A DNA stretch of 64,000 bases from an uncultured Candidatus Saccharibacteria bacterium (GTDB taxonomy: Bacteria > Patescibacteriota > Minisyncoccia > Phycocordibacterales > UBA2100). Both the position numbers and the translations under genes were made by a program. Position 1 is the stretch's first letter; each line of letters begins with the position of its first letter. The notes beneath the pieces are model-generated. The model saw only the letters and a program-made list of their open reading frames with translations, did no database searches and was not told the DNA's origin. The DNA lies in assembly GCA_964586255.1 (NCBI GenBank), contig CAZPGE010000004.1, positions 32,693 through 96,692 on the forward strand, in the 5' to 3' direction. Positions 5,823 to 60,354 of the stretch are shown here, in pieces.

Positions 5823-7175
5823 ATGATGACCAATCGAGAATTATGGCAGAACGCATTGGTCCAAATAGAACTCGGGACGACGCAGGCGTCGTTTAGAACC
5901 TGGTTTCGCAATACTGACATCGCAAATCGTGACGGGGGAGTCGTCCAAGTCGCCGTCCCGTCAAAGATTGTAAAGGAGTGGCTGCTTGAAAAACACCACA
6001 AGCTTGTTTTGAAGGCACTGCGCAGTCTCGACAACACCATCCGCACCGTTGAGTACGTGGTACACCGCTCCGCGCCGAGCGCCGAGCGAAAAGCTCCGCG
6101 CGCCGAGAAGCCCCAAGAGAATGCGTCGTTCGATTTACAATCTCTCTATATAGATAAGCGCGACAACCTGAACCCGCGTTACACTTTTGAGACATTTGTC
6201 GTCGGTCCCTTCAACCAACTCGCTCACGCGGCGGCAAAAGCGGTGCTCGATAGACCCGGCCTCACGTACAATCCTCTCTTTATCTATGGCTCCACCGGGC
6301 ATGGAAAGACACATCTCATACAAGCAGTGGGCAACTACTTCAAGAAAGCGCACGCCAACAAGAAAGTGCTCTATGTCACATCGGAGCGCTTTGCGGTGGA
6401 TTACATCAACTCCGTGCGTGCGGGACGAGCCAACAACTTCAAAGACCAGTACCGTCAGTACGACGTGCTCATCATGGACGACATCCAGTTCATTGCGAAC
6501 ACAGAAAAGACGCAGGAAGAGCTCTTCCACCTCTTCAACGCACTCCACGACAACAACAAACAAATCGTGTTCTCGAGCGATAAACACCCGTCACTTCTCC
6601 CCGGCTTTGAGGAGCGCCTCAAGGGCCGCTTTGCCGCGGGCGTGATTGCTGAGATACCCGAGCCCGACGTGGAGTCACGCATCGCCATCATCAAGGCGAA
6701 GATTGAGCAGCACGGCTTCTCAATCCCTGAAGACATCATCCAATACATTGCAGAGAACGTACGGGGCAACATACGCGAACTCGAGGGGGTACTCAATATG
6801 ATCGTTTGCAAATCGCAGCTCAAGGGAAAGGCAATATCCCACGCCGACGTGCGAGCGCTCATCAAACACAACGTAAAGCCCAATAGAGGTGTCTCTATAG
6901 ACGAGGTGGTCCGCAGGATAGCGCAATACTACGAAGTGCCGGAGAAGAGCATCTACGAAAAGACTCGCAAAAAGGAGGTGGTGAAGCCCCGTCAAATAAT
7001 CATGTACATGCTCCGAGAAGAATTTAGTGTCTCGTACCCGTCGATAGGAGAGAAACTTGGGGGTCGTGACCACACCACCGTCATCCACTCGTGCGAGAAG
7101 ATAAAGGAAGAGATAAAAATGAACAACGCACTCGAGCAAGAACTCGACCACATCCGTACTCTCATCCACGCATAG
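5823..7175 (+). CDS. dnaA: chromosomal replication initiator DnaA
   Basis: AAA+ Walker A 'GSTGHGKTHL', 'VLIMDDIQF', and a C-terminal DNA-binding domain. Confidence 0.95.
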   Translation: MMTNRELWQNALVQIELGTTQASFRTWFRNTDIANRDGGVVQVAVPSKIVKEWLLEKHHKLVLKALRSLDNTIRTVEYVVHRSAPSAERKAPRAEKPQENASFDLQSLYIDKRDNLNPRYTFETFVVGPFNQLAHAAAKAVLDRPGLTYNPLFIYGSTGHGKTHLIQAVGNYFKKAHANKKVLYVTSERFAVDYINSVRAGRANNFKDQYRQYDVLIMDDIQFIANTEKTQEELFHLFNALHDNNKQIVFSSDKHPSLLPGFEERLKGRFAAGVIAEIPEPDVESRIAIIKAKIEQHGFSIPEDIIQYIAENVRGNIRELEGVLNMIVCKSQLKGKAISHADVRALIKHNVKPNRGVSIDEVVRRIAQYYEVPEKSIYEKTRKKEVVKPRQIIMYMLREEFSVSYPSIGEKLGGRDHTTVIHSCEKIKEEIKMNNALEQELDHIRTLIHA

Positions 7176-7471
7176 TGTATGAACACAGCCTTCATTGGTA
7201 TTTCCGTCGATACACAGCGCGGCGTTGTTCGTGCACCGAAAAAAGTCTCTGTATATCCTGTGGAAAACACGGGGAGAGTGGTCGCACAACTCACGAATAA
7301 GTTTGCCGGAAAAGCCATGGCGCGAGTTACCCCCGTTTCATCCCCGCTTCACGCAAGAGTTTTCAACAGGTCACGTACAACTATTTCATCTAGATTCTGC
7401 GCGATATTTCCGACTTGTCCCCGCTATACACAGGACTAATAGTAGTAATAGAATATATAAGTAAAAAGTAT
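7176..7471. promoter_or_regulatory. dnaA-dnaN intergenic region with a DnaA-box-like site and an AT-rich stretch (possible DNA-unwinding element / second oriC module)
   Basis: TGTGGAAAA (7259-7267) is the reverse complement of TTTTCCACA. AT-rich 7380-7470 lies immediately upstream of dnaN. Confidence 0.3.
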
Positions 7472-8569
7472 ATGAAGATAACAACAACAAAAGAAAAACT
7501 TCTTAACGCGATATTGATGGTAGAGAGAATCACAGGAAAAAAAGAATCTCTCCCGATACTTTCTTGTGTTCTTATCGATACGACGAGTGACATAACACTT
7601 CGCGCTACAAATCTTGAAGCCGGTATTGAAGTGACCGTTCCCGGTGAAATATCAGAAAAAGGAGTTGTAGCTGTTTCAGCTACGATACTTTCACAAACTA
7701 TCCGCTCGATAGGTGGCGATAAAATATCGCTCTCAAGCGAAGAGGGGAATCTTCTTATCGAATCTCGCGGGACCAAGACACTTATAAAGGCAGTGCCTCA
7801 TGAGGAGTTCCCTGTGCTCTCAAGTGAATCAGGAAAATCAAACGTCTCTCTTTCCAGAGAGCGACTCATTCACGGTATTCAATCGGTTTCATACGCTGCA
7901 TCACCTTCGATGATTCGGCCGGACCTCGGAAGTATCTATATTTCTATCCAGGATGGTTCGATGGTCTGTGTCGCGACCGATTCGTTTCGTCTCGCCGAGA
8001 AGGTGGTTTCTGAGACCGGTTCTAAGACGTCGGATGAACTCCTTATCCCTCTCAAGCATGCACTCGAGCTCGTCCATGTACTCGAAAAACTCGATGATGA
8101 GAAGATTTCACTCTCGGCCGATGATTCACAGCTTGTTGTTGTGGGCTCCGGGACACGGTTTGTATCTCGTGTGGTCGATGCCACATTCCCCAACTATAAA
8201 GAAATTATTCCGAAAAAGTTTACGACTGAGGCCACAATGCTCAAAAATGACCTTGGTGAGATGCTCCGCAAAGCACGCGTGTTTTCAGGGAATGAGATGC
8301 ACGTGGGCCTCCATGTGTATCCGAAGAAAAAGATTTTTACTGCGACCGCGCGTAGTGCTGATGTAGGTGAGATGTCCGACTCTATCGATGCGGCCCTCTC
8401 AGGAGAGGATCTCGATATCAATTTCCACATAGGATATCTCGCCGACTGCCTGAGCTCTATCGCATCAGATTCTGTGATACTGAGTTTCTCCGGTGCAGGC
8501 CGTCCACTCGTGATTCGTGGTGTTTCGGATAGCAATTTCACATACCTGGTGATGCCACTCAACCGATAG
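7472..8569 (+). CDS. dnaN: DNA polymerase III beta sliding clamp
   Basis: 366 aa from the ATG at 7472, with three-domain clamp-like sequence. The ORF-track start at 7415 is probably an upstream extension. Confidence 0.9.
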   Translation: MKITTTKEKLLNAILMVERITGKKESLPILSCVLIDTTSDITLRATNLEAGIEVTVPGEISEKGVVAVSATILSQTIRSIGGDKISLSSEEGNLLIESRGTKTLIKAVPHEEFPVLSSESGKSNVSLSRERLIHGIQSVSYAASPSMIRPDLGSIYISIQDGSMVCVATDSFRLAEKVVSETGSKTSDELLIPLKHALELVHVLEKLDDEKISLSADDSQLVVVGSGTRFVSRVVDATFPNYKEIIPKKFTTEATMLKNDLGEMLRKARVFSGNEMHVGLHVYPKKKIFTATARSADVGEMSDSIDAALSGEDLDINFHIGYLADCLSSIASDSVILSFSGAGRPLVIRGVSDSNFTYLVMPLNR

Positions 8570-29691: not shown

Positions 29692-29764
29692 CCGCCCGTA
29701 GCTCAGTCGGTAGAGCACCTGCCTTTTAAGCAGAGGGTCGTTGGTTCGATTCCAACCGGGCGGA
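29692..29764 (+). tRNA. tRNA-Lys (anticodon TTT)
   Basis: Cloverleaf: acceptor CCGCCCG/CGGGCGG, D-arm GCTC/GAGC, anticodon loop CTTTTAA, T-arm GTTGG-TTCGATT-CCAAC, discriminator A. No encoded CCA. Confidence 0.85.
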
Positions 29765-29902
29765 CTGAAACGAAGTGTAAGAACGCCCGGTTGCGAAGGG
29801 GGTCGGGGAAACAGCTGTTTCCCCGTGGAGGAAGGCAGCCGCGCAGCGGCGTTGGAAAACCGTGGGTTTCCAAGGCAACTGGGGCGGACATGACGTCACA
29901 AA

Positions 29903-29923: not shown

Positions 29924-30063
29924 GCATTCATGTCCGGGCCGGAGCGTTGTCGCACAAGCTTGTGCGACCGCGAGGCGGGGGCTGCGACCGAGGCGAGTGA
30001 CGACGAGTCGAGAGTCGTGGCCGACTGGCTCGTCTGAATCATCGGACGAAGTCGCGTAACTCT

Positions 30064-35680: not shown

Positions 35681-35719
35681 CAGATATGAGCGCAGCGAAA
35701 TAGTTGTGCTCGCAGAGAA

Positions 35720-38197
35720 GTGCGGGAGATTCCTGCAAAAAAGCAAAGAAAGAGGTTCTTTTCCCCACGCGTTTCATTGCGTCGCCTCGGCGCAGGGCGC
35801 ATCATGGTGGACATGAGGAAGCGCTTTACGAGTCGCGGTTATTCTATTCTTGCCGCGCTCGTATTCGTCGCGCTCTTGGGGAGCATCACGGTCGCCGTAA
35901 ATTTCGCCACTCCATCAGTCAATCGGATGGCGATGTCAGCACTTGCTCCCGCGACGGGCAACGTACCTACGAGTGCGCCTGCAAGCACGGGAAAGGAGAG
36001 CGGACAGAAACAGCAATGCCAACCCGGATACGATTATGTAGTGAACAAAGATTCGAAAGGAAAACCCCAGGTTGCTGCGCAGCCAGTCTGTCCGCCTCCG
36101 GGCGAAGCTCCCAAGGGTCCCGAACAGATAAAGAGCACTCAGCAGGGTGCGGCGGCGCTCGCCCTCGCGCCAGGCACATTCGGGGAGCGCAACGACCCGG
36201 TGCGATGCGAGCTTGATGCCAAGACCAAGCAGTACAAACCTAAGAGCGACTATAAGTGCAAGGTCAAATACTGCATACCGGTTGGCGGCAACAAAAGTGA
36301 GTGTAAAGAAGTAGATAATTTGTTTGGAGCGAATAGCAGTATCGATCCTTCGGCCGTAGAGAAAGAATTGAGAGAGCCTTTGATCAAAGATATTTTAAAG
36401 AATACCGACCCATCTGAGCATCAAAAACTTCTGGGCGAAATGGGGGTATCTTCAGCGGATCAAGACATATTGAAAAAAGCATATGAGGAAGACAAGACGG
36501 AGACAAAGGCTGAGATTGCACGGAATAACAACAGATTGTCCGAAATAGAACAGGCGCTTTCAAATTGCGCATACGGTGGATGTGATGAAGGGCGCAATGC
36601 GCGAGATGCAAAGTTGCTAGAGGCCGAAAAAGCGGCGCTCGACGCAAGAAATGAGTCACTGCAGAAGCGTCTCAGTGTTCTCTCAGCTGCTGAACAACAG
36701 CATCTTAAGCCCGGCGTAGTGCCTGGCACCGACCAACCGGGCGTTGCGCAGGTCTGCAGCACGGCAGGTGGATGTGTAGGGCCAGATGGCAGACCGGTGC
36801 CCAAAAACACTTTCCGTGATCCGGGACCTGCTGCGCCGCAGGGACCCGCGGGGCCTGATTCGCCAGCACCGAGAAGTGGAGGTAATCCGATGGGATCTCT
36901 TGGCTCGCTCTTGCAAGGGCTCTTGAAGGGATTGAGCGGCTCAGGTGCGGGACAGGGTGCTCCATGCGCGTCTGATCCAAACGCGTATCAGCAACAACAG
37001 CAGCAGTATCAGATGCAGATGCAGCAGTACAACTACCAGCTGCAGCAATATAATTACCAACAGCAACAAGCGGCCACGTTTGGCGGCCCGCAGCCCCTTG
37101 CCCCTGTGCCTCCAGCGGCATGCACGCCGAACGCGGATTCAAATACATGTCCTGCCGCTCCTGTGCAGCCGAAGACGGGATGCGCCAATGGCTCATGGAA
37201 GCCCGTGACTACACAGGGGTCAAATGGACGCCAGTGCACTACAAACTGGCAGTGCACGCCAAGCAACGCGGTCACGCCGACCGCGGAACTCTCATGCCAG
37301 CCAAAGGTCGCCGATGTGGGAATGTCAGTGGCCATATCTTTTTCATGCGCCAACGCGACAGGAAGCTCGGGTGCTGGCGGGGGATTCTCCACCGACAATC
37401 AAACATCGGGTTCGACGACGACCGTGATAGCGACCCCGCCGACGGGTGCTACGGGCATCACGTACGCGCTCACATGCCGCAACGAGAATCTGACTGCTCG
37501 CGCTGAATGTAGTGTGCAGATATCAAAACCGACCATCGTGTTACTTGCCAATCCGAAGAATGTTGTCTCTGGGGAGTCCTCGAGAGTCGGATGGGTGACC
37601 AGTGGCATGCAGTCGTGCGTCGTATCGAGCCCTCAGATGCCGGGTTTCACTACGCAAAACGCGAGCAATAAAAACGTAAATGGTGTCGCAACAACCTCGC
37701 CACTCACACGCAATACCACGGTGGTACTGACATGCCAGACTATCGGGGGTAGCACAAAAGCGGCTTCGACCACAATAGTGGTGGGCAACAGCACATCGAC
37801 ATCGGTCATGACGGTCTCGTCGACTATTGATGGTCGGACGGATGTAAAACATGGCGCCTCTACGACGATTTCATGGCAGACACCTTCGGCACCGTCCAAC
37901 TCTGCGGTCGCGCTCTGGCTCGTCGATTCTCAGAGTGGTCAGGCGACAGGACTCATCCACCGCTCGGCAAACACGTCGGGCTCGTACGTGTGGGCGATTC
38001 CGGCCACGAGCTCACCATGCGCAGTCGATTCTCCTGCAGTTTGTGGTGCGGATCTCGTCGTTGGTCGCACGTATTCGATACAGGCGTCGCTTTTCACACC
38101 TCCCAATGCGTATCTTGGCGGACTTCCGCCAGCAGACCCTATAACACCGACGTACCTCGACGAAGCATCTACGGCGAACTTCAAGGTGAGTAACTAG
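35720..38197 (+). CDS. large Cys-rich, Q/N-rich cell-surface protein with repeated Ig-like modules (N-terminal membrane anchor)
   Basis: GTG start per the ORF track; an alternative ATG is at about 35804. Poly-Q/N tract QQQQQYQMQMQQYNYQLQQYNYQQQQ. Repeated modules 'V.W.SxG..SCxV.SP...........LTC.T.GG' are shared with the 27122 protein. Confidence 0.5.
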   Translation: MREIPAKKQRKRFFSPRVSLRRLGAGRIMVDMRKRFTSRGYSILAALVFVALLGSITVAVNFATPSVNRMAMSALAPATGNVPTSAPASTGKESGQKQQCQPGYDYVVNKDSKGKPQVAAQPVCPPPGEAPKGPEQIKSTQQGAAALALAPGTFGERNDPVRCELDAKTKQYKPKSDYKCKVKYCIPVGGNKSECKEVDNLFGANSSIDPSAVEKELREPLIKDILKNTDPSEHQKLLGEMGVSSADQDILKKAYEEDKTETKAEIARNNNRLSEIEQALSNCAYGGCDEGRNARDAKLLEAEKAALDARNESLQKRLSVLSAAEQQHLKPGVVPGTDQPGVAQVCSTAGGCVGPDGRPVPKNTFRDPGPAAPQGPAGPDSPAPRSGGNPMGSLGSLLQGLLKGLSGSGAGQGAPCASDPNAYQQQQQQYQMQMQQYNYQLQQYNYQQQQAATFGGPQPLAPVPPAACTPNADSNTCPAAPVQPKTGCANGSWKPVTTQGSNGRQCTTNWQCTPSNAVTPTAELSCQPKVADVGMSVAISFSCANATGSSGAGGGFSTDNQTSGSTTTVIATPPTGATGITYALTCRNENLTARAECSVQISKPTIVLLANPKNVVSGESSRVGWVTSGMQSCVVSSPQMPGFTTQNASNKNVNGVATTSPLTRNTTVVLTCQTIGGSTKAASTTIVVGNSTSTSVMTVSSTIDGRTDVKHGASTTISWQTPSAPSNSAVALWLVDSQSGQATGLIHRSANTSGSYVWAIPATSSPCAVDSPAVCGADLVVGRTYSIQASLFTPPNAYLGGLPPADPITPTYLDEASTANFKVSN

Positions 38198-38740: not shown

Positions 38741-38825
38741 GGAGGGGTGGCAGAGTGGTCTAATGCACCTGTCTTGAAAACAGGAGTGGGGCAACCCACC
38801 GTGAGTTCGAATCTCACCCCCTCCG
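38741..38825 (+). tRNA. tRNA-Ser (anticodon TGA), type II with a long variable arm
   Basis: Acceptor GGAGGGG/CCCCTCC, anticodon loop CTTGAAA, variable arm GTGGGGCAACCCAC, T-arm GTGAG-TTCGAAT-CTCAC, discriminator G. Confidence 0.85.
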
Positions 38826-38896
38826 CCTTCGCCTCGCAGTAGCTCGGCTTCGGCGTGACGCAGTCCGCAGAAGAAGAGCGAAGGCGGGAAAATAAT

Positions 38897-44480: not shown

Positions 44481-44528
44481 TTGACCGCGCCCGTCTGTGC
44501 GGTTACGCTGTGCATGTTCTCGGAGTCT

Positions 44529-44600
44529 GCCCTCGTAGCACAATGGATAGTGCAGGACTCTTCTAAGGTCTTGATGGGGGTTCGATTCCCTCCGAGGGCA
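44529..44600 (+). tRNA. tRNA-Arg (anticodon TCT)
   Basis: Acceptor GCCCTCG/CGAGGGC, D-loop AATGGATA, anticodon loop CTTCTAA, T-loop TTCGATT. Confidence 0.85.
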
Positions 44601-44604
44601 ATAG

Positions 44605-44678
44605 GCGCGCTTAGCTCAGTTGGTTAGAGCATCTCGTTTACACCGAGAGGGTCGGGGGTTCGAATCCCTCAGCGCGCA
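44605..44678 (+). tRNA. tRNA-Val (anticodon TAC)
   Basis: Acceptor GCGCGCT/AGCGCGC, anticodon stem TCTCG/CGAGA, loop TTTACAC, T-loop TTCGAAT. Lies 4 nt after tRNA-Arg. Confidence 0.85.
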
Positions 44679-44724
44679 CCGGAATTTGCCGTTTGTGGGG
44701 CGTGGTGTTATAGTGCCGCGACGT

Positions 44725-45858: not shown

Positions 45859-46012
45859 TTTCAGCGGGAGACTCGGTCACGCGTTAGCCTGAAGACTCGA
45901 CCAAGAGCTCGTTTGGTCGCCGTCGCGACCAAACTCCTCTCGGCCCTGTTCGCGCCGTCCCATCTGCTGATGGGTCCCGCGTCGCTCACTTTCTCGTCTC
46001 CCCCCGCTGAAA

Positions 46013-46049: not shown

Positions 46050-46055
46050 TTTTAG

Positions 46056-46140
46056 TGCGCGGGGGGAGACTCGAACTCCCATGCCCTTAACGGGCGCTAC
46101 CACCTCAAGGTAGTACGTCTACCAATTTCGCCACCCGCGC
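46056..46140 (-). tRNA. tRNA-Leu (anticodon GAG), type II
   Basis: Minus strand: acceptor GCGCGGG/CCCGCGC, D-loop AAATTGGTAGA, anticodon loop TTGAGGT, long variable arm, T-arm GGGAG-TTCGAGT-CTCCC. Confidence 0.85.
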
Positions 46141-48778: not shown

Positions 48779-48868
48779 GCGGAATCTATTATGAAGAAGC
48801 GCCTGCCCGTGGCTGGCGCTTCTTTCGTGCTAAACGCCGGTTTTTTTGCTATAAATCGCCGTGTAGAT

Positions 48869-48941
48869 GGCGACTGTGGTGTAACGGTTAACACTGGAGC
48901 TTGTGGAGCTCTCGATCAGGGTTCGATTCCCTGCAGCCGCC
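48869..48941 (+). tRNA. tRNA-His (anticodon GTG) with encoded G-1
   Basis: G-1 plus acceptor GCGACTG/CAGCCGC (one A-C mismatch), D-loop AACGGTTA, anticodon loop TTGTGGA, T-arm CAGGG-TTCGATT-CCCTG, discriminator C. Confidence 0.8.
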
Positions 48942-49128
48942 CAAAAAATAACAAAGCAGATGCGAAGCATTTGCGAGTTCTATTTTTCGGAGTGGCTGCA
49001 GGGAATCGAACGGCGGAGCGTGGTGAGGCCAGCAGGCCGAACCGCGAGCCGGTGCCCAACCCGAGTCGCGCGACGGTGCGACGAGAGGTGAGGGAGATTC
49101 CCGCTTAGGTAGCTCATGAACGGGTCTT

Positions 49129-49614
49129 TTGCGCGGGTATAATACCCCCATCTCTATGAAAAAAGGTGAAGATTTCATCGGCATCACGGTTTCTTTCCTT
49201 TGTCATGATGGTAAGGGCAATGTGCTCCTCTCAAAGCGAGGCGAAAACGCTCGCGATGAACATGGGCGCTGGGACTGCGGAGGAGGGGGCGTAGAGTTTG
49301 GCGATACGGTTGAGGCTACGTTGCGGAAGGAGATTCAGGAAGAATATTGTACAGACGTGCTCGATGCGGAGTTCCTGGGGTTTCGTGATGTATTCCGAGA
49401 AAAAGACGGACGCAAGACTCACTGGGTGTCGCTTGATTACCTCGTGCTCGTCGACGCGGAGATGTGGGGTAATGGAGAGCCGCACAAGCTCGAAGAAGTA
49501 AAGTGGTTCCCTTTTGCTGCATTGCCCGAGCCGATGCATTCACAATGGCCGATGTTTCTCGAACAGTATGCGCCAAAGCTGATACAATTGAAAAATGGAA
49601 CAAGAGCTCAGTGA
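49129..49614 (+). CDS. NUDIX hydrolase
   Basis: Nudix box 'GGGVEFGDTVEATLRKEIQEE'. A TATAAT-like -10 lies upstream. Confidence 0.75.
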   Translation: MRGYNTPISMKKGEDFIGITVSFLCHDGKGNVLLSKRGENARDEHGRWDCGGGGVEFGDTVEATLRKEIQEEYCTDVLDAEFLGFRDVFREKDGRKTHWVSLDYLVLVDAEMWGNGEPHKLEEVKWFPFAALPEPMHSQWPMFLEQYAPKLIQLKNGTRAQ

Positions 49615-58757: not shown

Positions 58758-59195
58758 ATGATAACCATTTCTCAACTTACAGAAGCGACAGCGAACTCTA
58801 TTGCCGAACTTAATACGCTCATGCGCGAACTCCGCACCGAACAATCCGGCGATGCCATTAACAGTGTCGACGACATGACGCTGCTGCTGAGCGATAAAAA
58901 TATTGTCGTCATGACGGTGAAAGACGACGAAAAGATTGTTGGTGTTGCCACTCTGTATATAGTGCCCAAAATCGGGAAGACCGTCGCGTACATCGAAGAT
59001 GTCGTCGTGAGTAGCGCGTATCGTGGACAGGGGTTGGGCGAGAAACTCGTGCGCAAAGTCATCGAAACCGCGAGAAGTAGGCATGTCAAAAGTGTAGGGC
59101 TTACCTCGCGTCCGGCACGAGAAGCAGCAAATAAGCTCTACCAAAAGATTGGCTTCAATCGCAAGGAGACGAACGTCTACAAGCTCGCTCTCTAA
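58758..59195 (+). CDS. GNAT-family N-acetyltransferase
   Basis: Acetyl-CoA binding motif 'VVVSSAYRGQGLGEKLVRKVIETAR'. Confidence 0.75.
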   Translation: MITISQLTEATANSIAELNTLMRELRTEQSGDAINSVDDMTLLLSDKNIVVMTVKDDEKIVGVATLYIVPKIGKTVAYIEDVVVSSAYRGQGLGEKLVRKVIETARSRHVKSVGLTSRPAREAANKLYQKIGFNRKETNVYKLAL

Positions 59196-59199
59196 CCAT

Positions 59200-60354
59200 A
59201 TGGCGCGGGTGAAGATAAGCGAATATAAGGCGAAGAAGATTCTCTTTGGGGAGGCGTACGATGGTCTACAGTTGCGCACAGGCGAGTCCATGAATATCCC
59301 GGATGGACACTGGGTGGCGAAAGTCGACCAGGGCGTCAAGAAGCGCTTCAAGCAAGGGCTTGTCGCTGTCGACAAACCGAAGGCTGAGATACTCACTGCA
59401 ATCGCCGAGTGGGAGAAAAAAGGATTCACGCAATTCGTCCTTGAGCCGTATTTTGAACACGAGGAGACAGAGGAGCAGTACCTCTCTCTCGAGAGAGTCC
59501 GAGGAGGAGTGCGCGTGCTGCATGCGTCGGGAGGAGGGATCAATATAGAGGAGCACCCTGAAGCGGTCGGACGTTACATTATATCTGAGGAAGCTGATAT
59601 CGCAGGAATTGCGAAAAAGACCAAGGTTCCGGAGTCTTTCCTGTCGCGCCTGTACGCAATATTCAATGCGAGCCACTTTTCATTCTTGGAGATTAATCCG
59701 CTCATCGTGCGAAGTGAAGACGTGTATGCGCTCGATGCGGCCGTGCTCGTCGACAGTGCGGCGGAGTTTTTCGTTTCTGGCATCTGGAGCGACGATGACG
59801 TCGTGAAGACAAAAGCGAAACATGTCGCCGAGGAGCGCGTAGAAGCGCTTGCGGCGACCACACCCGCGGCTCTCAAGCTCTCCGTAATCAATCCCAACGG
59901 CGCGCTCTTCTTCCTGCTCTCAGGTGGAGGCGGAAGTATCGTAATTGCTGATGAGGCACAGCTTGAGGGTGTCGGACACCTCATAGCGAATTACGGAGAA
60001 TACAGCGGCGGTCCGACTCGCGAAGAAACATACCTGTATTCAAAAGAGATAATCGGCATGATGATTGAATCGAAGGCGCACAAGAAAGCGCTCGTGATTG
60101 CGGGCGGGGTCGCAAATTTTACCGATGTGAAAAAGACTTTTCTCGGTATCATAGATGCGCTCAAAGAGCGCTCGGAAGAATTGCGGACGCAGGGTACAAA
60201 GATATTTGTTCGGCGTGGTGGTCCCAATGAAAAGGTGGGCTTGCAGCTCATGCGCGATTTCTTACAAAACGAAGGGCTTCTAGGCGCAGTCTACGGCTCG
60301 GACGTCGTCATTACACAAGCGGTGGACGATGCCATTCAATATATCCGCATATGA
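59200..60354 (+). CDS. aclB: ATP-citrate lyase beta subunit (ATP-grasp, citrate-binding)
   Basis: Strong similarity to the ACLY N-terminal half: 'FSFLEINPLIV...VYALDAAVLVD', 'ANYGEYSGGPTREETYLYSKEI', 'IAGGVANFTDVKKTF', 'IFVRRGGPNEKVGLQLM'. ATG at 59200; the ORF track extends upstream. Confidence 0.8.
   Translation: MARVKISEYKAKKILFGEAYDGLQLRTGESMNIPDGHWVAKVDQGVKKRFKQGLVAVDKPKAEILTAIAEWEKKGFTQFVLEPYFEHEETEEQYLSLERVRGGVRVLHASGGGINIEEHPEAVGRYIISEEADIAGIAKKTKVPESFLSRLYAIFNASHFSFLEINPLIVRSEDVYALDAAVLVDSAAEFFVSGIWSDDDVVKTKAKHVAEERVEALAATTPAALKLSVINPNGALFFLLSGGGGSIVIADEAQLEGVGHLIANYGEYSGGPTREETYLYSKEIIGMMIESKAHKKALVIAGGVANFTDVKKTFLGIIDALKERSEELRTQGTKIFVRRGGPNEKVGLQLMRDFLQNEGLLGAVYGSDVVITQAVDDAIQYIRI

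Follow-up and report, generated by a model that had tools for sequence, protein, structure and literature searches.

The T-loop and the 3′ end of tRNA genes are a classical target of integrating elements, and integrases of the T-loop class leave the tRNA tail there as a direct repeat beginning in the T-loop. Other systems, namely integron attC sites and the attP hairpin of CTX phages, provide recombination sites in the form of a folded strand; to our knowledge, this folded-strand mechanism has so far been described from integrons and CTX-type phages only. Here, we analyze a 64,000-nucleotide stretch of DNA from an uncultured Candidatus Saccharibacteria bacterium (contig CAZPGE010000004.1, positions 32,693 to 96,692 of the forward strand), to which we refer as the window, and in it a GC-rich structured segment behind the tRNA-His gene. 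This segment, at 48994-49102, is a copy of a multi-copy family of non-coding modules of Kaiserbacteria-like Patescibacteria, and variants with other cores occur in further Paceibacteria. Its closing helix replicates the tail of the neighboring gene, and wherever such a gene was detected the copies lie strictly on its 3′ side and in the same orientation. A search of the full-text literature returned no description of such an element, the nearest paper being concerned with group I introns that sit at position 35/36 in the anticodon loop of tRNAs from Patescibacteria. The element type is apparently undescribed and appears to combine features of a mini-element flanked by att repeats with those of a folded-hairpin recombination site.

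Islands at genes for tRNA and transfer-messenger RNA (tmRNA), cis-mobilizable elements (CIMEs) and the ssrA islands of Dehalococcoides (PMC3146451) resemble the element in the direct repeat from the T-loop, the intact gene, tandem accretion and, as in locus L196 described below, cargo between the repeats. Unlike them, the element has an insert of only ~150-190 nt that is gene-free and built on a structured core, it holds an extra inverted copy of the target, and one core serves ~35 tRNAs. With integron attC sites and the XerCD-dependent CTX attP the element has in common an imperfect palindrome of ~60-140 nt with one folding strand, a stem that recreates a duplex site, a variable or branched terminus, extrahelical or mismatched bases, the lack of coding capacity, a recombinase encoded elsewhere (putative in our case) and the arrangement of units in arrays. 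On the side of the element this likeness consists of a predicted strand-specific covarying hairpin only, and recombination is hypothetical. The element differs in having neither an integron integrase nor an attI context and in its locus-specific stem, which copies the tail of the neighboring tRNA, the targets being tRNA and tmRNA genes. An attC identity was rejected because the closing stems are tRNA-specific and lack the RYYYAAC...GTTRRRY boxes, no integrase lies nearby, and strand-specific folding is all that the two have in common.

Miniature inverted-repeat transposable elements (MITEs) and repetitive extragenic palindromes with their bacterial interspersed mosaic elements (REP-BIME) are likewise short, non-coding, multi-copy, hairpin-forming, GC-rich, intergenic and variable between strains. 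In contrast to these, the element is tied to tRNA-like 3′ ends in one orientation and has a three-way-junction core. Its inverted ends are derived from the target, its duplication ranges from 7 to >80 nt with one end fixed, and no transposase partner was found, for which reasons we rejected a MITE. The inverted terminal repeats of parvoviruses, including adeno-associated virus (AAV), are also T- or Y-shaped hairpins (~110-125 nt) with a long stem, two small arms and GAGC/GCGAG-type motifs, but this is a likeness of shape only: the element is chromosomal and linked to tRNA genes, with no Rep/HUH gene and no flip/flop. IS200/IS605-like insertion sequences, casposons, introns of groups I and II, retrons, T-boxes and tandem interspaced guide RNA (TIGR) arrays were rejected as well, since the flanks, sizes, proteins or Rfam matches that they require are absent.

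The folded segment behind tRNA-His

The 18-mer GTTCGATTCCCTGCAGCC at 48921-48938, which corresponds to nt 53-70 of tRNA-His from the T-loop through the 3′ strand of the acceptor, recurs as an exact reverse complement at 48994-49011. An earlier interpretation made from the letters alone (the sequence-only reading) had noticed this inverted copy and set each of its ends 1 nt too far out, at 48993-49012. For a 73-nt tRNA and ~260 nt of sequence, our own arithmetic puts the chance expectation of an exact 18-mer reverse complement at ~2e-7. With mismatches allowed, the inverted repeat extends over 28 nt at 86% (48921-48948 versus 48984-49011). In what follows, A denotes the 3′ part of the gene from the T-loop (48921-48942), which is the source of the copy in the element, A′ denotes the inverted copy and A2 a direct copy of the tail at the far end of the unit.

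The GC-rich character of the ~110-nt segment, previously put at about 68%, was borne out by our values of 69-70% (0.69 at 49000-49099) versus 0.54 for the whole window. The helix GGGAATC/GATTCCC that was thought to close the segment is indeed present, but its second strand, formerly placed at 49097-49103, occupies 49096-49102. Both of the internal hairpins that had been proposed, GGCC-agca-GGCC and GTCGC/GCGAC, belong to the minimum-energy fold. On the plus strand, the region 48990-49115 folds with -67.6 kcal/mol (z = -5.4, none of 200 shuffles being as good), whereas the minus strand is unremarkable (-46.6 kcal/mol, z = -1.2).

The core region aligns to 18 homologues without indels, and a covariance model, R1, was built from 19 homologues. 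For 30 copies, RNAalifold produced a three-way junction with compensatory changes in 21 of 29 pairs, which we refined by hand into a closing helix P1, an arm P2 with a tandem G.A motif resembling a kink-turn (K-turn), and an arm P3 with further tandem G.A pairs. In 19 sequences, 92.1% of the cells are paired and 25 of the 37 pairs show double changes; none of 500 shuffles did as well, and slid controls reached 34-43%. For 90 distinct sequences, whose alignment was fitted to the model so that the counts lean toward the structure, the values are 90.7% paired, 33 of 37 pairs compensatory, none of 500 shuffles and 30-44% in the slid controls. The nucleotides of junction and loops are conserved among the copies. 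As G.U exceeds A.C (101 versus 36) and G.A exceeds C.T (218 versus 8), the folding strand is the tRNA-sense strand. The same excess, together with the poor minus-strand fold, led us to reject a gene on the minus strand with a tRNA-like 3′ end. Inspection for a kissing interaction between the loops of P0, a hairpin described below (CUGC), and P2 (GCAG) revealed no consistent covariation.

The fold of the His copy in the window is still under constraint, as can be seen from a comparison with the relative L001 (loci are numbered with the prefix L). Both the His and the Leu copies of the two differ at few positions, almost all of them structure-preserving, and one pair is changed on both sides, a true compensatory change; the flanks have fully diverged. 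At the gathering score, Rfam 15 identified only tRNAs and one unrelated group I intron in the window and eight canonical loci, and a scan of 48800-49250 by E-value gave nothing meaningful.

A module family behind tRNA and tmRNA genes

A scan of species genomes anchored on NusG placed the bacterium in Candidatus Kaiserbacteria / Parcubacteria and supplied the relatives, among which L001 has a 100% identical NusG; metagenome copies were gathered with a core-derived pattern (TCGAAMGSCGGAGCG...CGAGSCGG). The pattern matched at least 120 metagenome contigs and no viral contig, and the family comprises >100 copies in metagenomes and Kaiserbacteria-like genomes. Many of the metagenome matches stem from 0.1-μm groundwater fractions, such as those of the Hainich, and those in genomes belong to Kaiserbacteria/Parcubacteria. 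Among the matches listed, 76 of 125 have a tRNA within 400 nt upstream, in all cases on the same strand, and ~35 anticodons are represented. Most of the matches with no tRNA are chance matches in coding DNA of high GC, lie at contig edges, are orphan copies or follow tmRNA genes. Where a tRNA or tmRNA was detected, the copies lie 18-111 nt downstream with two outliers, again all on the same strand. Genuine tmRNA genes (ssrA) followed by the element and a direct copy of the tmRNA tail are found in L087 (8667-9231), L103 (944-1501) and L169 (94-673). All nine R1 matches in the relatives are located just 3′ of a tRNA.

Complements of the tRNA tail of at least 11 nt lie downstream of a minority of 114 tRNAs (NusG loci and the window), each fitting its own tRNA (Table 1), and upstream and 5′-half controls gave at most 10 nt. 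In the unbiased set of NusG-anchored loci, a direct tail copy (at least 14/16 nt) is present downstream of 10 out of 100 tRNAs versus none upstream. The sequence-only reading had taken membership in a widespread dispersed repeat as a reason to abandon its interpretation; the core does prove to be such a repeat, but the inverted copy is specific to the locus and fits each neighboring tRNA.

A complete unit starts with the tRNA or tmRNA gene, continues with a trailer that contains a terminator hairpin and with A′, and ends in core and A2. The spacer is usually the terminator hairpin, often a perfect palindrome starting at the tRNA end. A′ consists of an optional complement of the acceptor strand, an optional conserved hairpin (P0) and a complement of the T-stem and T-loop that ends in TCGAA, and the core proper (~90 nt) is conserved and has two hairpin arms. 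A2 copies the tail from nt 56/57 of the T-loop and is perfect (19/19) in 29 of 68 units among the matches listed. The perfect direct repeats measure 19-21 nt, some reaching into the trailer, their left boundary is sharp, and perfect A2 copies lie 38-46 nt past the core pattern with one exception. In many units A2 is cut back to its T-stem part, the truncated copies amounting to ~40%; in L017 the direct tail copy covers 39 nt including trailer. On the tRNA-sense strand A′ pairs with A2, giving a Y-shaped hairpin whose stem replicates the 3′ end of the target gene as a duplex. The cores are homologous behind different tRNAs: in L155, the Arg and Lys cores of one contig differ at 2 positions, whereas their tRNA-specific flanks are wholly different. 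This tRNA-rich contig, with its two elements and near-identical cores, also carries a group I intron (6418-6645, minus strand; Rfam 81 bits). Other tail duplications, which we assign to a different family, occur at tRNA-Ile(TAT) of distant Patescibacteria (L070 15843-16040, L073 6488-6680); the one in L070 is a longer repeat that starts near the anticodon arm and lies past a long hairpin.

Conservation in relatives, which had been proposed as a check, was observed in part of them. At tRNA-His the element is present in the window, L001, L020, L016, L017, L026, L053, L125 and L150, but absent from L002-L006, the closest relatives after L001; in L004 a Nudix gene begins straight after tRNA-His. 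At tRNA-Val, L001 (where the contig end truncates it), L002 and L014 have the element and the window lacks it. Sequence comparison shows the tRNA-His trailer of the window (48943-48993) to be homologous to the spacer of the L020 tRNA-His element, pointing to shared ancestry with losses in between. Units can also accrete: L168 has identical units in tandem, and L117 and L085 have second units that are truncated. Since the extended repeats proved to be truncated second tandem units, we rejected simple target-site duplication.

Copies also mark rearrangement breakpoints. Similarity between the window and L001 spans the Leu and His elements and stops at 49105, inside A2, after which L001 has 486 extra nt. 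The tRNA pair Arg(TCT)-Val(TAC) is inverted between the two (window 44528-44680, L001 67-218). In L196 (1551-7990), two copies of the element and a repeat of the tRNA-Glu tail surround a 6.2-kb segment that encodes a PemK/MazF-like toxin and a DinG/Rad3-like helicase and no integrase; this segment may be a small island using the element as its end. None of the 20 window ORFs (open reading frames) tested is a recombinase, the L196 cargo contains no recombinase domain, and clustering of 480 ORFs within 4 kb of 92 elements produced housekeeping families only and no recurring partner. Serine recombinase genes of large and small types are found at 4-5 element loci, outside the units, too few for an association.

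Candidate explanations of the module

Our preferred reading, held tentatively and at somewhat below an even chance, is that the unit is a miniature, non-autonomous, non-coding insertion module for the T-loop and 3′ end of tRNA-like genes, operating at the DNA or the RNA level. The inserted unit would be the terminator, A′ and core between the two tail copies, and it would enter and leave at the T-loop/3′ end of these genes. The folded single strand might provide a recombinase encoded elsewhere with a copy of the target duplex, as the attC and CTX attP hairpins do. Gene conversion limited to the core would homogenize the cores within a genome, giving near-identical cores between different flanks, and precise loss could result from recombination between the two direct tail repeats. 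An insertion module is favored by the direct repeats from the T-loop, tandem accretion, patchy distribution, breakpoints at the repeats, the lack of a promoter and the carried terminator. Non-autonomy is supported by the units being non-coding, with no recombinase or recurring neighbor. Of the features expected of T-loop-class att sites, we found the direct repeat from the T-loop with an intact tRNA and polymorphism at orthologous sites, but no integrase in or adjacent to the unit.

The scar of an att site, one of the two candidates of the sequence-only reading, captures part of this picture. Complete members of the family are bounded by a perfect T-loop repeat of 19-21 nt, but they also contain a conserved ~106-nt core and a terminator and lack an integrase. 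At the window locus, GATTCCC alone survives of the repeat, and integrase chemistry does not explain the inverted copy. As most of A2 is lost, the His copy of the window is probably immobile.

A number of points weigh against an insertion module. We found no recombinase, no circular form and no pair of empty and filled alleles from the same population, so that mobility is a conclusion drawn from distribution only. That A′ and A2 fit ~35 different tRNAs is beyond what simple site-specific recombination can explain, and this tailoring to each tRNA lacks an explanation under every model. The near-identical cores within one contig (L155), the fact that A′ is the reverse complement of the 3′ strand of the tRNA and no copy of its 5′ strand, and the conserved P0 hairpin between two tRNA-specific segments add to the difficulty. 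Conservation of the fold in situ and the conserved tandem G.A pairs look more like functional RNA than like selfish DNA. The serine recombinases lie at few element loci and never within units. The family is absent from the viral and plasmid collections searched (no pattern match in IMG/VR, and none in INPHARED and PLSDB except for a chance match in a Kitasatospora plasmid), on which account we also rejected a phage or plasmid origin. Finally, collection with a core-derived pattern biases the apparent conservation of the pattern positions, and the 92-sequence alignment was fitted to the R1 model.

A structured non-coding RNA that serves the host is the explanation that fares best among the others, and we consider it possible but rather doubtful. 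Such an RNA would be transcribed together with the tRNA when a leaky terminator is read through, or else from weak promoters, and would act on tRNA metabolism. It would mimic the "top half" of a tRNA, with an acceptor-like and a T-stem-like coaxial helix and the T-loop swapped for a three-way junction. RNase P, RNase Z and the CCA-adding enzyme might trim it, and it could serve as decoy or sensor, as a signal for processing or insulation, or, via the K-turn-like G.A motifs, as a protein scaffold. The tRNA identity of the helix would then be a by-product of local duplication, kept by selection for pairing. The very strong covariation, strand asymmetry, numerous conserved tandem G.A pairs and conserved junction and loop nucleotides argue for this explanation, as do the differences between the window and L001, which keep the structure between wholly diverged flanks. 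So do the constant co-orientation just downstream of a transcribed tRNA or tmRNA gene and, in many copies, the tRNA-like layout of acceptor-strand mimic, hairpin and T-stem mimic. Similar arrangements are known from the t-elements of plant mitochondria, the mascRNA (MALAT1-associated small cytoplasmic RNA), viral tRNA-like structures (TLS) and bacterial YrlA, which also place an acceptor-like on a T-stem-like helix and adjoin, or are cotranscribed with, other RNAs. In the element, by contrast, the T-loop is replaced by a 90-nt junction, the copy of the adjacent tRNA is exact, the discriminator is often paired, and processing is hypothetical.

Several observations speak against a host-serving RNA. 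A canonical-looking intrinsic terminator precedes most copies, and a -10-like hexamer is found upstream of 12 of 86 copies (14%) versus 103 of 251 tRNAs, with no positional peak. Since such hexamers are rare and unpositioned and a promoter scan of the tRNA-His locus detected none for the element, a promoter of its own was rejected. The small structured RNA that the sequence-only reading had put forward as its other candidate is therefore supported as regards the conserved, covarying three-way junction on the tRNA-sense strand, but most copies have no promoter-like site and stand behind a terminator, and action as RNA is a matter of prediction. Moreover, pairing of the acceptor mimic frequently runs on across the discriminator and into the trailer, which sets it apart from a tRNA end, and A2 is truncated in a large fraction of the copies. 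The element is also dispensable, being missing at the same tRNA in close relatives, its tandem and truncated units and A2 breakpoints resemble mobile DNA, and a host RNA gives no reason for a helix to copy the neighboring tRNA.

We think it improbable that the core is a new catalytic or guide RNA acting on tRNA 3′ halves, in which A′ and the conserved GAAC would pair with nt 53-73 of the cognate tRNA and the core would cut and join at C56|G57, making the unit a silent, mobile "T-loop intron", a viroid-like module or a trans-splicing cassette. In the trans-splicing variant, A2 could be a spare 3′ half for a tRNA damaged in its T-loop or acceptor. If true, this would give the most reduced bacteria a new ribozyme class, or a system in which RNA guides the repair or parasitism of tRNAs. 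An intron- or viroid-like element that is selfish at the RNA level seems quite improbable to us. Here, the stretch between nt 57 and the core end would be cut out of read-through transcripts or circularized from them, guided by pairing of A′ with the tRNA 3′ half and cleaved and ligated by the core at C56|G57. This site occurs both in the real T-loop and at the junction of core and A2, and excision would restore a normal tRNA and hence be silent. This would fit the unit boundaries at the same T-loop nucleotide on both sides, the complementarity of A′ and GAAC to tRNA nt 53-73, which goes 4 nt beyond the A2 match, the head-to-tail tandem units and the ability of the unit to fold as a single unbroken rod that reaches from the terminator loop to the tip of the Y. 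However, Rfam has no matching ribozyme or intron, and 106 nt is far below the size of a group I intron. By eye, the junctions (GAA(C/A), G(U) and none) are unlike the CUGANGA/GAA/H core of the hammerhead and no permutation fits, so that a hammerhead-type junction was rejected. A DNA copy would need reverse transcription, and no reverse transcriptase gene was seen in the loci; the group I intron paper reports no group II introns in Patescibacteria. The upstream terminator speaks against this explanation too.

A passive by-product, either the decayed attL...attR of an integrase island or a direct-inverted-direct triplication by template switching at the terminator and T-arm hairpins, would account for the direct tail repeat from the T-loop as a trace of T-loop-class integrases, for the terminator palindrome, which in many cases fills exactly the stretch between tRNA end and acceptor mimic, and for the relic-like remnants at tRNA-Arg and tRNA-Ser of the window. 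Yet it leaves unexplained the structure-preserving divergence and a ~90-nt core that is conserved in sequence and structure at ~35 tRNAs of many genomes with 33 of 37 pairs covarying; we regard it as very improbable and, in our view, refuted by the covariation. The chance of a second tRNA-like gene, be it a pseudogene or the coding piece of a two-piece tmRNA using the T-arm and acceptor of tRNA-His, we consider negligible. Although GUGGCUG can pair with CAGCCGC of the tRNA and a weak tmRNA_permuted match (RF04321, 17.8 bits, E = 0.13) mirrors how T-arm, acceptor, spacer and complementary strand are laid out, this value falls well short of the gathering score of 47, no reading frame is plausible as a tag, and the same architecture follows 35 kinds of tRNA as well as genuine tmRNA genes. 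ARAGORN and Rfam call the upstream tRNA-His only, with nothing in 48990-49110 on either strand at E <= 10, and ARAGORN, which does detect normal tmRNAs upstream of homologous elements, reports no tmRNA in the window. The sequence-only reading had also excluded a second tRNA and a tmRNA, and we concur.

Other copies in the window and wider meaning

The window contains seven tRNA genes according to ARAGORN, and the features of the modules behind three of them are collected in Table 1.

Table 1. Coordinates and supporting evidence for the modules, tail complements and nearby recombinase genes
Feature	Position	Strand	Evidence or remark
tRNA-His(GTG), intact	48870-48942	+	ARAGORN; Rfam RF00005, 56.9 bits
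Trailer, part "T" of the unit, with terminator-like hairpin 48956-48974 (GCAGATGC-GAA-GCATTTGC) and T-run	48943-48993	+	Terminator scan
A′, complement of the tRNA-His 3′ end	48984-49011	+	Exact for tRNA nt 53-70 (48994-49011); imperfect outward into discriminator and trailer
Canonical ~106-nt core, three-way junction	48997-49102	+	Covariance model R1, 110.6 bits, E = 5e-26, full length, no indels
P1 of His core, GGGAATC/GATTCCC	49001-49007/49096-49102	+	Minimum-energy fold
Junction GAA of His core	49008-49010	+	
P2 arm of His core, tandem G.A pairs, loop AGCA	49011-49051	+	
Junction GU of His core	49052-49053	+	
P3 arm of His core, loop GACG	49054-49095	+	
A2 remnant GATTCCC	49096-49102	+	Direct copy of tRNA tail from T-loop nt 57; acceptor part gone
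tRNA-Leu(GAG), then bidirectional-looking terminator hairpin	46055-46140	-	ARAGORN
tRNA-Leu element, second core subfamily	45864-46007	-	Core 45892-46004; R1, 13.9 bits, E = 0.25; same architecture
First tRNA-Lys module, variant	29784-29889	+	A′ CGCCCGGTTG 29784-29793; hairpins; degenerate direct copy CAACTGGGGCGGAC 29876-29889; fold z = -3.1
Second tRNA-Lys module, canonical core	29928-30025	+	R1, 58.1 bits, E = 1.3e-12
Tail complement at tRNA-His, L016			21 nt
Tail complement at tRNA-His, L017			17 nt
Tail complement at tRNA-His, L026			15 nt
Tail complement at tRNA-His, L053			14 nt
Tail complement at tRNA-Leu, L055			13 nt
Serine recombinase, L162	11372-12973		0.3-3 kb upstream of element-bearing tRNA
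Serine recombinase, L106	8075-9652		0.3-3 kb upstream of element-bearing tRNA
Serine recombinase, L167	1130-1705		0.3-3 kb upstream of element-bearing tRNA

A weaker analogue at tRNA-Leu had been pointed out earlier, and we could confirm it: the 12-nt GTCTCCCCCCGC at 45996-46007, found 48 nt downstream of tRNA-Leu (minus strand) and past its terminator hairpin, is the reverse complement of 46059-46070. Read on the minus strand (46007-45996), it is the A′ of the tRNA-Leu element (GCGGGGGGAGAC), and an A2-like GAGTCTTC is found at 45891-45898. In blastn comparisons, the tRNA-Leu element shares 79% identity over 95 nt with the tRNA-His element of L017 (E = 3e-16) and 90% with L001; its fold has z = -3.8. 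In L015 this Leu-type subfamily is represented by a complete copy whose tail repeat is perfect and whose trailer is duplicated. Further along, at 45864-45882 (minus strand), there is a second remnant with no core, GCGTGACC|GAGTCTCCCGC, which joins a core end to a tail copy, is fuller in L001 and suggests a former tandem unit.

Two modules in tandem, with a terminator hairpin between them, follow tRNA-Lys (29692-29765, plus strand). The first begins 19 nt downstream with the 10-nt complement of the tRNA-Lys 3′ end, which had escaped the sequence-only reading. Behind each of the Leu and Lys complements comes a well-folding, GC-rich stretch with a degenerate direct copy of the tail of the respective tRNA at its end.

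Smaller traces lie behind two further tRNA genes. Downstream of tRNA-Arg(GCG), at 35706-35736 (plus strand), GTGCTCGC ... GGGA|GATTCCTGC contains the last core nucleotides and a 9-nt direct copy of T-loop and T-stem, and looks like a relic with the core deleted. At tRNA-Ser(TGA) (38823-38887, plus strand), the 10-nt palindrome CCGCCTTCGC / GCGAAGGCGG extends across the tRNA end and trailer and encloses ~45 nt; the ORF after it (MYYAYSLRCKDGFYVGCTDDIQERLERHQKGQ...) resembles a GIY-YIG nuclease by eye. Other window ORFs (5823-8566, 19-966 and 59149-60351, all on the plus strand) comprise dnaA and dnaN, a TraG-like P-loop ORF at the start of the window, and an ORF that resembles the citrate-binding and ATP-grasp domains of ATP-citrate lyase, which is unusual for a genome of the candidate phyla radiation (CPR). 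As dnaA and dnaN are present, the window is chromosomal and spans the origin region.

If the family is what it seems, about one in ten tRNA genes of the Patescibacteria sampled would be followed by a conserved Y-shaped structure that mimics the tail of the gene it follows. It would be a new example of selfish or semi-selfish exploitation of the conserved T-arm, possibly by a folded-strand mechanism. It would also account for breakpoints, inversions and small islands beside tRNA genes in streamlined genomes and, of interest to annotators, for "orphan" fragments of tRNA 3′ ends and GC-rich spikes downstream of CPR tRNA genes. The motif itself is an unannotated, high-information addition to the catalogue of bacterial non-coding sequences, and its >100 copies, with covariation in 33 of 37 pairs, make it ready to be turned into a model of the Rfam type.

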